Source: Sedimentisphaerales bacterium (lineage in GTDB: Bacteria > Planctomycetota > Phycisphaerae > Sedimentisphaerales > SM23-30). From it: a stretch of 64,000 nucleotides of DNA. Position 1 is the first letter of the stretch, and each line of letters opens with the position of its first letter. The translations under genes were made by a program, and so were the position numbers. The DNA lies in the NCBI GenBank assembly GCA_963666285.1, contig OY762711.1; one strand, 5' to 3'. The notes below the pieces were generated by a model. That model searched no databases. It was not told the DNA's origin and saw only the letters and a program-made list of their open reading frames with translations. Positions 25,592 through 29,735 of the stretch are shown here, in pieces.

Positions 25592-25898
25592 TTCGACCGC
25601 CTGTCATATCTGCTATTACCAAAACCGTCCCAAAACTAAGGACACCTTCTCCCAGCCATTATACCGCAACTTCTCTCCATGCCATACACCTTTTTTCCAT
25701 CCTCTTTGAGGCCAGGTATACAACAAATATACATCTTGTATAATAGGCAGGGTTGGCACAGTCACCACACAACCATTACTATTTCAAAACCGCCAATTCT
25801 CGCGTCAGCTTTAAATTTAATCGTCCGCAAATGCGGAAACCTTCTATCCATTTCATATTTTTTTCGTGAATTTTTGTGTATTTCTATGAAGCCAGAAT

Positions 25899-26282
25899 GC
25901 AACATTAATTTTCTAATTTTATTCATTTTTGCTATAATTCCTTTATCTTGCAAAGGATAGGGCTCTGCTGAGGAGCAACCCGAGCGTTGCAAGTTGTCGA
26001 GAAGCCGGGGCGGTTTTACACCGCCTCGTTTTTTGCTTTTTGACCTTATGCGATAAACCTATTTAAAACAATTTTCGCGTAGCGAATCATTATTTACCTG
26101 ATTGTTTCATCTTTCTATCCGGAGTGTCCGAGGCTGTATTTTACGCCATGGTTCCATTATATATATTGCGATACGGCTTAATTTTCGTGTCAGGTTCAAA
26201 ACCCAAATGCACGACCAAGGTTCCGTATCGATTTCAATCGGGCAAAATCATAGGTAATATTTATATTTTACTTATATTGGTA
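25899..26282 (-). ncRNA. Putative bridge/seekRNA region of IS110 element A (boundaries approximate)
   Basis: Stem 26169-26176/26223-26230 encloses two arms matching the insertion-site flanks, around an inner hairpin at 26193-26203. Confidence 0.65.
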
Positions 26283-27329
26283 TCAAACACTTTGCAATTC
26301 AGGCATCTGCCAACTTGTCCCATCTCGCATCATCGCCCACAATCGTACGAACAACCGTCGGGCTGTAGCTACTATCGCTATTTTTGCACGAGTTTTACTT
26401 CCCCTCTTTATTCTTTCGTATGTTTCTTTTATCCATGGATTCCAACGCAAACCCAGCCAGCAAACCTCAACAAGTAATGCTCGCAATAACCTATTGCCAT
26501 ATTTACTTATCCGCCCATGACGGTCTGTATTACCTGATTGGTACTGACGCGGTGTCATACCAATATAGCTGCCAACTTGTTTGCAATTCTTAAATCTATG
26601 TGGATCATCAATATAAGCTGCAACTGCCTCTGCCAGACGTGGGCCAACTCCGGGAACAGTCTGTAATAGTTTTACCTTTTCATCAGTACTATTTAACTCT
26701 TCCAGTTTATCTTCAACTACTTGCAAAGCGTCTGTTAATTGTTCCAGTAATATAAGCTCGCTCCATAGATTGCCTTTCCAGAGCTCATCTGGTTTAACTT
26801 TATCCATTGGCATAGCCATACTTCTTAACTGTTCCAGATTCTGCTTAGACCAGCACTTTCTGCCTGACGGCAACGAATACGCCTGGGCATTTAATAAAGA
26901 ACGAATAGTATTTTTTACCTGAGTTATCCGTTCTGTAAGGCTCTGGCGATAATTAATTAAAGATCGTTTCTCTCGAATTTCCTTTTTAGGAACATAGACA
27001 GTTGATAAATCTCCTAAAGCAGCACGCTTGGCCAGCCAAAATGCATCCTTTTTATCTGTTTTCTTCTTCAATTTTCTGCCAGACCATTCGCCGGTATTAG
27101 TATTTGCCACTTCATATTTTAATTCCAGGGTGTCAAAAAGGTCACAAATCCAGCCTATGATATCACAAGCCTCAAATACAATAAGATCAGCAGGGTGAGA
27201 TACTGCCAGGTCATGAAGCTCTTGAGGGTTAGTCTTAAACGACTTATATATAGCCTTACAGCTTTTTACCTCATAAAAACAAACTACACTCTTGAATTTT
27301 CCTAAATCAATTGACATAATAGTCTTCAT
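26283..27329 (-). CDS. IS110-family DEDD transposase/recombinase
   Basis: SIDLGK, VFEAC, KTDKKDA, LQTVPGVG, GMTPRQYQSG, GRISKYGN, AIVATARRL. Confidence 0.95.
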   Translation of the reverse strand: MKTIMSIDLGKFKSVVCFYEVKSCKAIYKSFKTNPQELHDLAVSHPADLIVFEACDIIGWICDLFDTLELKYEVANTNTGEWSGRKLKKKTDKKDAFWLAKRAALGDLSTVYVPKKEIREKRSLINYRQSLTERITQVKNTIRSLLNAQAYSLPSGRKCWSKQNLEQLRSMAMPMDKVKPDELWKGNLWSELILLEQLTDALQVVEDKLEELNSTDEKVKLLQTVPGVGPRLAEAVAAYIDDPHRFKNCKQVGSYIGMTPRQYQSGNTDRHGRISKYGNRLLRALLVEVCWLGLRWNPWIKETYERIKRGSKTRAKIAIVATARRLFVRLWAMMRDGTSWQMPELQSV

Positions 27330-27537
27330 AGCCAGAATACTCCGTATAAAATTGGTTAAATATTTGAGCGTCCCTGTGACAGCTCGTGCTAAAATTATTG
27401 TGTATTATAACACAAGCCATGCTACAGGAATATTCTGGCTTTCATTGTATTTTCGTGGTTCTAAAAAAATATTAAAGTACAAGCGTTCTTATCGAGCTAT
27501 AGCTTTAGCGAAGCCTGAAATGAGTATCCTCTTTATT

Positions 27538-28000
27538 CTTTGCGATCTTTGCGGCCTTTGCGAGAGACAAATCCTATCAAAACCACTCTGCTTAATATCA
27601 TTCCAATCTCCAACCAAACCAGCATCGTTAAGGACATAGTAGTTCAGGCATCCCTGCCTGACAATAAACCAGCCGTCACGCAAGCGACTCCTAATTCCTG
27701 GGAACGCCGAGCACCAGCTCGGCATATTCGGCGCCAGCCGATTTAAACTTGGTCACACACCTGTCCTGAGCGAGCGATGCGAGTCGAATAACAGCAATAC
27801 CATCTTTTCTCAGATCTCAGACTTTATTTGTCCTATCTGTCCTATATGTCACATGCGTCATATATGTCCTATTTCCTTTTTCCGTCTCTTCAGTTATTTC
27901 AGTAGTAAAGCATTTTCCCGCCCGCACCAGCTTTAAAAAAAGTTGTAAGCCGTTAGGCGAACACCTTAATTTTTCATTTTTCACTATTCATTTTTCATTT
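27538..28000. repeat. Cluster of REP-like palindromes and 7/9-mer tracts between the two IS110 elements
   Basis: (CTTTGCGNN)x3 at 27538; TCAGGCA..TGCCTGA; GCCGAGC..GCTCGGC; (TGTCCTAT.)n at about 27829; (TTTTCA.)n at about 27970. Confidence 0.6.
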
Positions 28001-28118
28001 AACGAAGCCTCTCTTCTCCCTCCTCGCTTCTAACTCTCTTCATTCGTGAAAATATGAAGAAAAGGCATCCTAAGGTATAATATATACCAAAACAAACTTT
28101 TATACGAAAGGATGCCTC

Positions 28119-29150
28119 ATGAACAACATACATTATATTGGAACAGATTTGCATAGCAACAATATTGAGCTGGCAATTCGTTACAGGCAGAAGGTAATCC
28201 AGAGATATTCTCTGCCGACATCGTTGCCTCCTGTTTTGGAGGTTATAAGCTCCATCAAAGGCAAAAAACAGATGGCAGTAGAGGAAGGCCCCATGGCAGG
28301 CTGGCTTTATCGCGGCGTATTTGGCAAAGTTGACAGGTTTGTAATCGCAGAACCTCGCCGTAACAAGCTGATAAGCTCAGAAGGCGATCATGATGATGAA
28401 ATTGATTCTGCAAAACTTGCAATGCTGCTGGAAGGAGGCCTTTTGAAGGAAGTTTATCATCCTCTAAATAGAGAGCAAGCGGTATTTAAAAAGTGGGTAA
28501 CTCTTTACCATGACAATGTTAAGGATGCAGTAAGAAGTATTAACAAAATCAGAGCCTGTTGTCGTATGGAAGCCATAAGAATACCCAGATATGTAATAAA
28601 AAACCCTGACAAACGTGACAAATGGCTTTCGGAGCTTGAATATACAGACATTGCCGAGCAATTAATGTTGCTGCTTATCGGCTACGATGCAGCTTCCTGC
28701 CAGTGTAGACTTGCCAGGCAAAAAATCATGACTCTAAGTAAATCTTATCCGGTAATTAAGCAATTTCAGGAGCTGCCCGGAGTTGGCATAATACGAGCAG
28801 TAACCTTCCTGGCATATATCGATACGCCATGGAGGTTTAAGAAAAAAAGTCAATTATGGAAATATTGCGGCATTGGACTTGAACGTACAACCAGCGGCAA
28901 AGACAAATATGGCAACTCAAAACCGGCAAAACTTAAATTGCCTTACAACTGTAATCGCACTCTTAAAAATGTAATAATTGGTGCCGCTTTAAGTGCTATC
29001 AGGCAAAAGAATAGTACATATGCCCAGGATTATGAAAGGATGATCTCAAATGGTGTAAATAGATCAAATGCTCGCCATACCGTTGCCAGGAAAATACTGA
29101 CAACTATGTGGGGGATTTGGAAAAGCAGCTTTCAGTATAATACGGATTAA
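28119..29150 (+). CDS. IS110-family DEDD transposase/recombinase
   Basis: YIGTDLH, AVEEG, HDDEIDS, ELPGVG, KYCGIGLERTTSG, HTVARKI. Confidence 0.92.
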   Translation: MNNIHYIGTDLHSNNIELAIRYRQKVIQRYSLPTSLPPVLEVISSIKGKKQMAVEEGPMAGWLYRGVFGKVDRFVIAEPRRNKLISSEGDHDDEIDSAKLAMLLEGGLLKEVYHPLNREQAVFKKWVTLYHDNVKDAVRSINKIRACCRMEAIRIPRYVIKNPDKRDKWLSELEYTDIAEQLMLLLIGYDAASCQCRLARQKIMTLSKSYPVIKQFQELPGVGIIRAVTFLAYIDTPWRFKKKSQLWKYCGIGLERTTSGKDKYGNSKPAKLKLPYNCNRTLKNVIIGAALSAIRQKNSTYAQDYERMISNGVNRSNARHTVARKILTTMWGIWKSSFQYNTD

Positions 29151-29540
29151 GATATCGTAATTTATACTCTTTCAAAATATTATGATTTTCTAATAGTCTT
29201 TTTGCATAACAGCAAAGAGTTCCGTTTCAACCACTGGACAGGCAAGAACTTGAACCCGATTCGTGAATGAACCTTTGCTTTTAGACGTGCCTCTTTTCTT
29301 TTTATGAACTGCCCAAAGGGCATGTTCCCAATAGATGGTTGGCAGCATAATTTAATTTACGGCTATACACAATTTTATAAAAGAATTGACCGAACAGAAA
29401 ATTGTAGTTATTGAAAAAATCGCAAAATTACAAAAAAGATATCTATGACATGTACCTGCTGATGCAATAACTTACAACAAACGTATGGATGCCCTCAAAG
29501 TAATTCATTCGAATTAGAAATTTTTTAACTTGACTTTGAG
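29151..29540 (+). ncRNA. Putative bridge/seekRNA region of IS110 element B (boundaries approximate)
   Basis: Target-like loop 29211-29279 and donor-like loop 29288-29344, with arms matching the target and the element end. Confidence 0.7.
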
Positions 29541-29735
29541 TTCTTCATAGATGGTTTAGCTCTTAGCCCGCCCGCGCGATTCTAAACAATCTCGGCAAAG
29601 CCGGATTAATTATTACTAGTCCCGCCATGAACGACAACATACAGCTGCTGCCAGCAAGCCCGTGGAACAAAAGCCACCCAAAACATCTCAAGCCCTGTCA
29701 AGGGCGACAGAAACTATACTTCATAATGATTTTTC

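Follow-up and report, generated by a model that had tools for sequence, protein, structure and literature searches.

The stretch of DNA analyzed here, referred to below as the window, comprises 64,000 nucleotides of contig OY762711.1 from a Sedimentisphaerales bacterium (Planctomycetota). Positions 25881-27449 of its minus strand are occupied by a complete IS1111-type insertion sequence of 1569 bp, here called element A, which consists of a transposase gene with 402 nt of non-coding DNA downstream and 120 nt upstream of it. A preliminary description of the window had placed the element at 25861-27460; the element is present as described, whereas this span includes 20 and 11 bases of flanking DNA. 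The transposase scores 213.5 bits with the NCBIfam profile NF033542 'IS110 family RNA-guided transposase' (cut-off 140) and matches Pfam PF01548 (E 1.1e-13, residues 7-147) and PF02371 (E 1.5e-26), and its C-terminal half is similar to the solved ISCro4 (9t56) and IS621 (8wt6, E 3.5e-14) proteins. The segment GMTPRQYQSG fits the motif G-x-x-P-x-x-x-x-S-G, with M replacing the L of GL-P----S(t)G. The inverted repeats of element A, ATGAAAGCCAGAAT and ATTCTGGCTTCAT, pair over 13 bp with one extra A and are inset 4 and 5 bases from the ends, and their length lies within the 7-17 bp required of subterminal inverted repeats in the IS1111 group. Judged by its architecture, namely the subterminal inverted repeats, the long downstream non-coding region and the absence of a target duplication, element A belongs to the IS1111 group of the IS110 family; the protein profiles agree with this assignment, which had already been proposed in the preliminary description.

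We searched the source genome (6.35 Mb, 4 contigs) for element A and found 9 full copies with 99-100% identity plus one 35-nt fragment; beyond these, no solo copy of the guide region discussed below was found in the genome. The 348-aa transposase frame is open in all 9 copies, and the alignment of the copies contains 29 variable columns, none of which falls between window positions 26000 and 26242. Every copy is preceded, in transposase orientation, by ACCACGAAAA and lies within phased arrays of CACGAAA decamers, with an identical orientation relative to the array in 9/9 cases. The right flank reads TTCACGAAAG AACACGAAAA in 5 copies, (A)TTCACGAAAG AACACGAAAA with one extra A in 2 more and AACACGAAAG GCACGAAA in one further copy. 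The plus-strand flanks in the window are TTTTCGTGAA TTTTTGTGTA at 25861-25880 and TTTTCGTGGT at 27450-27459, and cutting out 25881-27449 leaves three phased decamers, which is the 3x10 repeat that had been predicted to be restored on removal of the element. Five uninterrupted sites elsewhere in the genome read CCACGAAAATTCACGAAA, which equals the left flank joined to the right flank, and element A was therefore inserted between the first and the second decamer without duplicating any bases. These empty sites, together with the point at which the 9 copies diverge, set the boundaries of the element, whose ends are ambiguous by 3-4 bases because an A-run is common to the left flank and the right end. 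The motif CACGAAA occurs 459 times in the genome, and its arrays sit in very long intergenic stretches filled with other short tandem repeats.

Predicted guide RNA and its target-matching arms

The non-coding region downstream of the transposase gene contains a block, 26097-26242, that folds into a predicted long seekRNA or bridge RNA (Table 1). All RNA parts are given on the minus, i.e., transposase-sense, strand and were derived from an alignment of 17 elements (element A and 16 relatives), from RNAalifold and from single-sequence folding. With a probability of roughly nine in ten, this block encodes the guide RNA of element A, and the two arms of its internal loop are the target guides.

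The 5' arm (T arm), UCGUGCAUUU, complements the top strand of the right half-site, AAAT-x-CACGA. Compared with AAATTCACGA, it matches at 9/10 positions in seven of the nine copies and at 8/10 in the other two, the window copy included. The 3' arm (B arm), CACGAAAAU, reproduces the left half-site together with the element's first base, as an exact 9-mer in 9/9 copies, and would therefore pair with the bottom strand. The T arm lies 5' of the B arm, and the two overlap on AAAT, at the insertion point. Read together, the arms spell a 15-mer for which the genome contains no exact match and 6 one-mismatch matches, compared to 0.5 expected; five of these six are the empty sites. The elements of this arrangement that had been reported in the preliminary description, i.e., a perfect 8-bp stem (CGATACGG, 26169-26176, and CCGTATCG, 26223-26230), an arm ATTTTCGTG (26181-26189) identical to the flank at 27449-27457, an arm AAATGCACGA (26205-26214) whose reverse complement matches 25874-25883 at 8/10 positions, and the inner hairpin GGTT/AACC, can all be read in the sequence, and every coordinate given for them was correct. 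Its proposal that the RNA is programmed against the host repeat family is supported by the order of the arms, by the common site of all nine copies and by the covariation in relatives described below.

The sequence of stem P2 varies among the 17 elements while pairing is retained in all of them, and P1 is likewise paired in every element, with compensatory variants such as UUUGAUUGG/CCAAUCAAA and AUGAUCG/CGAUCAU. The alignment also revealed an extra 4-bp helix, P2a, which narrows the internal loop to 10 + 10 nt. Double changes were scored by RNAalifold at 4/5 pairs of P2a and 3/4 pairs of the P4 base, one of the latter being a GC pair in 11 sequences and an AU pair in the remaining 6, and P3 contains compensatory changes as well. 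At two positions G-U pairs are invariant (17/17 sequences); since the other strand would have A-C mismatches at these positions, the fold was assigned to the transposase-sense strand. The minimum-energy fold of element A contains P1, P2 and P3.

This minimum-energy fold also pairs the two arms with each other (UCGUG/CACGA), in line with the partial self-complementarity that had been attributed to the tandem target: one arm corresponds to unit n and the other is the complement of unit n+1, and the arms therefore pair together. In element A, pairing of the arms is predicted to stabilize the closed form by 8.3 kcal/mol relative to the open loop. The predicted difference amounts to 3.6-9.4 kcal/mol in the other relatives with repeat-like targets and to 0 in the G185/G398/G020a group, which has a non-repeat target. 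According to these folding models, guides against tandem repeats may be self-masked until the protein opens them; if so, self-masking would act as an inherent brake on transposition or would restrict the targets that can evolve.

A further match concerns the element's own end. The sequence AUAGAAA (26118-26112) in the three-way junction is identical to the right end of element A, CATAGAAA, and this junction strand is therefore probably a donor-binding guide. The trinucleotide following AUAG is the same as that following CATAG at the right end in 14 of the 17 elements and differs by one base in the other 3; its classes are AAA (found in element A alone), AAG, AGG and GAG. An Acaryochloris marina plasmid carries an element with 42% identity which, read by eye, has ATAGTCG at the equivalent place and the right end CATAGTCG and adds a fifth class, TCG. 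By eye, its B loop matches its own left flank at 8/10 positions and no match was seen between its T loop and its own right flank, which may not be the original one because another transposase gene lies just downstream. As the four to five donor classes follow clades, they represent perhaps four independent events. Another strand of the junction, CAAUAUAUAUAA together with UGGA (26153-26168), may be a second donor guide.

Table 1. Features of element A and its flanks, with positions in the window; RNA parts are predicted.
Feature	Position	Strand	Remark
Transposase gene	26283-27329	minus	348 aa; DEDD/IS110-family RNA-guided recombinase
Left target half ACCACGAAAA	27450-27459	minus	same in 9/9 copies
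Right target half TACACAAAAA TTCACGAAAA	25861-25880	minus	window copy; first unit degenerate
4-base extension TACA before left subterminal repeat	27449-27446	minus	
Left subterminal inverted repeat ATGAAAGCCAGAAT	27432-27445	minus	core ATGAAAGCCAG kept in relatives
Right subterminal inverted repeat ATTCTGGCTTCAT	25886-25898	minus	CTGGCTTCAT kept in relatives
AGAAA after right subterminal repeat	25885-25881	minus	
TTGCAT, -35-like hexamer at right end	25897-25902	minus	read from sequence
TACAAT at left end	27449-27444	minus	16 nt from TTGCAT once ends joined
Predicted long seekRNA / bridge RNA, ~145 nt, closing stem P1 to partner	26097-26242	minus	block conserved in 17 elements
Closing stem P1, GAUUG / CAAUC	26239-26235 / 26104-26100	minus	
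Target-binding stem-loop	26169-26230	minus	P2, P2a, inner hairpin P3
Stem P2, CGAUACGG / CCGUAUCG	26230-26223 / 26176-26169	minus	
3-nt bulge	26222-26220	minus	
Helix P2a, CUUG / UAAG	26219-26216 / 26180-26177	minus	found by comparison
T loop (5' guide arm) GUCGUGCAUU	26215-26206	minus	plus paired U at 26205
Hairpin P3	26205-26191	minus	GGTT 26193-26196, AACC 26200-26203 (plus-strand letters)
B loop (3' guide arm) ACACGAAAAU	26190-26181	minus	
Single strand CAAUAUAUAUAA	26168-26157	minus	three-way junction
P4 base, UGGA / UCCG	26156-26153 / 26123-26120	minus	RNAalifold
Single strand GAUAGAAAGAUGAAA	26119-26105	minus	junction; contains AUAGAAA
Terminator-like hairpin and T-run	26006-26038	plus	opposite to transposase; consensus match only

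Covariation of guides and targets among relatives

A protein search of 401 genomes from this order recovered homologues of the transposase at E <= 1e-70 in 18, one of which is the source genome, and a smaller search recovered them at E <= 1e-30 in 8 of 61 genomes. In a set of genome contigs the protein query detected only two distant loci, both in Spirochaetota (28-32% identity). The 16 relatives analyzed share 46-66% protein identity with element A. Those whose contig reaches the element end carry nearly the same ATGAAAGCCAG / CTGGCTTCAT, while the flanks differ, and more than 8 clearly different targets are represented among them. In these relatives, a substring of the downstream non-coding region complements the element's own right junction, and ~25-30 nt further 3' another one equals its left junction.

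The covariation of guide and target in homologues, which the preliminary description had suggested as a check, was assessed on the alignment of the 17 elements. Arms were defined by alignment column, the T arm as the 10 nt before the inner hairpin and the B arm as the 10 nt before a conserved U-R-R-G, and every arm was scored against the junctions of every element. One representative per target class entered the permutation test. For T arms we left out G171, the right flank of which is cut by the contig end, and G305, G185, G398, G078a and G069 as near-duplicate guides; for B arms we left out G305 and G242, which are without a left end, and G185, G398, G078a, G069 and G020a, which form one arm class with G164. 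The T arms of the 11 representatives matched their own junction with a mean of 8.91/10, compared to 5.64 (standard deviation 0.99) for the junctions of others, and the 10 B arms reached 9.00/10 and 5.70 (standard deviation 1.03), respectively. None of 100,000 permutations attained the observed value, neither for T nor for B. In the closest relative (66% identity), for example, the B arm reads CGUGAAGAU and the left flank CGTGAAGAT, where element A has CACGAAAAU and CACGAAAAT, and the scaffold around the arms is nearly unchanged between the two. This comparative covariation, read from aligned sequences, is the decisive evidence that the arms are guides. Several relatives in other genomes carry guides against 9-11-bp tandem units, and those of G129 and G113 are directed against CGCAAAG- or TTGCGA-type repeats.

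Some observations weigh against this interpretation. The T arm of G398 matches its own right flank at 5/10 positions, i.e., at chance level, the T arm of G129a and the B arm of G038 reach 7/10 with their own flanks, and the T arm of G017 matches the adjacent flank over 6 contiguous bases, with 9/10 one repeat further on. The permutation figures overstate independence because the relatives are kin. Single-sequence folding gave z-scores of -2.04 for the sense and -2.44 for the antisense strand, which leaves the strands indistinguishable, and the P4 base, known from comparison only, is missing from the minimum-energy fold of element A, where local hairpins form instead. When 26168-26157 was compared by eye with the reverse-complemented left end in element A, G017 and the majority group, only matches of 3-5 bases appeared, in shifting register. 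No matching Rfam family was found at gathering thresholds in the whole window or at E <= 10 in 25800-27500, the sole match in the latter interval, to a snoRNA (E 3.4), being rejected as chance. Finally, mononucleotide shuffling of the 362-nt non-coding region of the window copy (2000 shuffles) gave an 8/10 match to the right junction 1267 times, which is chance level for this copy. An exact 9-mer match to the left junction was obtained in 82 of the 2000 shuffles and both arm matches in the observed geometry in 5, so that the evidence from a single copy is modest and the strength of the case comes from the nine copies and the relatives.

Three other explanations of the arms were considered. The guide might act as single-stranded DNA, with subterminal segments pairing with the target as in IS200/IS605. 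Sequence cannot separate an RNA from DNA of the same strand, and the near-equal folding of both strands is compatible with such a guide, but the protein belongs to the IS110 RNA-guided family and is not an HUH transposase, the guide is located ~170-360 bp inside the element and away from its tip, and the conserved G-U pairs are on the transcribed-sense strand. In addition, the architecture fits that of the seekRNAs demonstrated by experiment in the available part of PMC11187229, and we regard a DNA guide as very improbable. Just as little credit is due to the idea that the stem-loop functions in termination, attenuation or protein binding and that its likeness to the flanks goes back to a captured host repeat. 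Capture is made plausible by the abundance of CACGAAA (459 occurrences) and by the A+T-richness of the region, in which short matches are easy; however, the same two loop positions carry unrelated targets in the relatives, whereas a captured copy would not track the target, one arm is sense and the other antisense with an overlap at the insertion point, and the hairpin is without the T-run of a terminator. That the matches arose by chance in low-complexity sequence is close to inconceivable, since the frequent 8/10 right-arm match in shuffles is outweighed by the rarity of the joint geometry, the site common to 9/9 copies and the permutation result, and the comparative data contradict it.

Mechanism and comparison with known systems

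Element A is best explained as an active or recently active member of the IS1111 group, of the RNA-guided DEDD recombinase type. By analogy with ISEc11, ISPa11 and ISKpn4, it would excise as a circle, the joined ends of which would form the promoter TTGCAT-16-TACAAT and drive the transposase gene and the downstream non-coding region. The folded ~145-nt RNA (~26242-26097, minus strand) would then be released and bind the transposase. Its 10 + 10 nt internal loop would read the target, UCGUGCAUUU pairing with the top strand of the right half-site and CACGAAAAU with the bottom strand of the left half-site, and the AAAT on which the arms overlap would be the point of strand exchange without target duplication. 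The strands of the three-way junction, AUAGAAA at least, would read the element's own ends. The programmed target would thus be one unit boundary in the phased CACGAAA decamer arrays of repeat-filled intergenic DNA. Transcription and processing of the RNA, its binding to the protein, the circle and the promoter are all proposed by analogy. TTGCAT-16-TACAAT, which had been noticed earlier and was confirmed on the minus strand, is a candidate circle-junction promoter on the same grounds, the available promoter rules not covering this phylum; relatives of element A have TTGACA at nearly the equivalent place.

Among the assembled contigs of three runs of one organism and one wastewater run, no contig joining the right to the left end was found, a result that is uninformative either way with respect to the circle. 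A joint that skips 1580 was considered as an excision product at this locus and rejected, as its 3 and 7 mismatches on the two sides point to a paralogous empty site. No RNA run containing the element was found among the sequencing runs listed. The wastewater-metagenome run contained a 260-nt contig of low depth identical to window positions 26100-26359, i.e., to the guide region and the 3' end of the transposase gene, and element A or a near-identical one therefore occurs outside the source sample.

According to the portions of Siddiquee et al. (2024; PMC11187229) that were available, the downstream non-coding region of ISEc11, ISPa11, ISKpn4 and ISPst6 gives rise to a seekRNA of 82-96 nt and a ~150-nt form. 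The seekRNA co-purifies with the transposase and is required for circle formation and insertion; its top-strand-complementary segment lies 5' of the bottom-strand one, and the two overlap in the target. The joined ends create a promoter, and no bases are duplicated. Every feature of these seekRNAs that can be read from a sequence is found in element A. On the basis of the same portions, element A resembles the four elements in a transposase of 330-350 aa with the G-x-x-P-x-x-x-x-S-G motif, in its subterminal inverted repeats, downstream non-coding region, lack of target duplication and promoter-like joined hexamers, and in a predicted RNA with stem, internal loop and hairpin in which an overlapping top-strand match precedes the bottom-strand match. 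ISPa11 also inserts in a host repeat, a repetitive extragenic palindromic (REP) sequence. Unlike the four elements, element A targets the boundary between units of a direct tandem array rather than a palindromic REP, a transposon end or an attC site, and while the former elements have been studied by experiment, element A is known from its sequence alone. Its best plasmid-borne homologue is 42% identical, with <= 31% for other IS110-family genes among the matches listed; given an identity of at most 42% to these plasmid genes, element A falls into a distant, unnamed clade.

According to the accessible sections of Durrant et al. (2024; PMC11208160), 93% of IS1111 elements have a predicted bridge RNA in their right end, and the donor-binding bases of many IS1111 orthologues are located in a multi-loop, in agreement with the position of the probable donor guide in element A. 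Element A is predicted to share with IS621 and the IS110 group (PMC11208160; Hiraizumi et al., 2024, PMC11208158) a single RNA for target and donor, guides for both strands and a DEDD recombinase. In contrast to element A, the RNA of the IS110 group lies upstream of the gene, has its guide strands in the opposite order and reads the donor with a simple internal loop, whereas the donor-matching bases of element A are in a three-way junction. ISPpu9 and ISPpu10 of Pseudomonas putida, which target REP sequences (PMC12288879, available in part), are likewise multi-copy elements with a host intergenic repeat as target and a downstream small RNA gene, the latter being predicted in element A. According to the same text, ISPpu9 has additional solo copies of its small RNA gene, whereas no solo guide copy was found in the genome carrying element A. 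In a limited literature search on IS1111 in Planctomycetes and on IS110 bridge RNA at tandem-repeat targets, no prior description of element A was found; one paper that speaks of tandem repeats means tandem cargo copies.

The mechanism is as described in 2024; element A adds a natural example and does not change it. It represents a well-resolved natural case of seekRNA or bridge-RNA targeting in Planctomycetota, distant from the elements studied so far. Together with its relatives it provides a natural reprogramming series, in which 17 elements are directed at more than 10 different targets and which separates guide from scaffold positions in the loop and should be useful for modelling the guide rules of IS1111-type elements and for annotating them.

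Two minor features lie 3' of the predicted guide RNA in element A. A hairpin similar to the terminator-like one on the plus strand was found in the 66% identical relative, and the hairpin in element A may block read-in from outside. Just 3' of the guide RNA, a small hairpin TTCGCTACGCGAA followed by AATTGTTTTA (26074-26086, minus strand) is kept in the same relative; the long RNA may have its 3' end there.

Other elements in tandem-repeat arrays

A second, unrelated IS110-family element, element B, occupies window positions 28044-29553 on the plus strand and contains an open reading frame (28119-29150) of 343 aa. Its transposase scores 95 bits with NF033542, below the cut-off, and matches only PF02371 in Pfam. 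Element B is present in 3 genome copies with the ends TCGTGAAAATATGAAG ... TTCTTCATAGATGG, and its downstream region has ATTCGTGAA, matching its own left flank CATTCGTGA. The copy at C1:3804248 is inserted, in the opposite orientation, in the type of CACGAAA array targeted by element A. A third IS1111-like family (L039-L042), with a 36% identical transposase, has 4 copies at G000:C1 about 1589823, 2394713, 5026826 and 5746309 and the ends AAGCTATGGTAACCGGAGC ... GCTCCGGTTCATAGGAT. Three of the four copies are flanked by AACCACGAAT / GGACACGAAT TCACACC, i.e., by phased CACGAA decamers; in the guide, a B-type arm fits at 8/10 positions by eye, and a T-type arm could not be placed.

Three IS1111-like families of this genome, element A (9 copies), element B (3) and the 36% identical family (4), are thus flanked by CACGAA-type decamers. 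The phased short-repeat arrays, which are poorly understood, serve as specific insertion sites at least for element A and probably for all three of these RNA-guided families. It is conceivable, with the odds rather against it, that short tandem-repeat arrays are landing pads shared by several independent insertion sequences, whose RNA guides have been programmed against them.

At C1:712640-719080, and in similar regions near 909000-918500, several kb of intergenic DNA are packed with different tandem repeats of 7-11-bp units. In the former region, three CGCAGAG/CGCAAAG 9-mers directly follow CACGAAA decamers, and two copies of element A are 476 bp apart. A separate small repeat family is represented in the window at 27928-28008 by a sequence of ~75 bp just left of element B, which has more than 40 copies in the genome with 77-100% identity.

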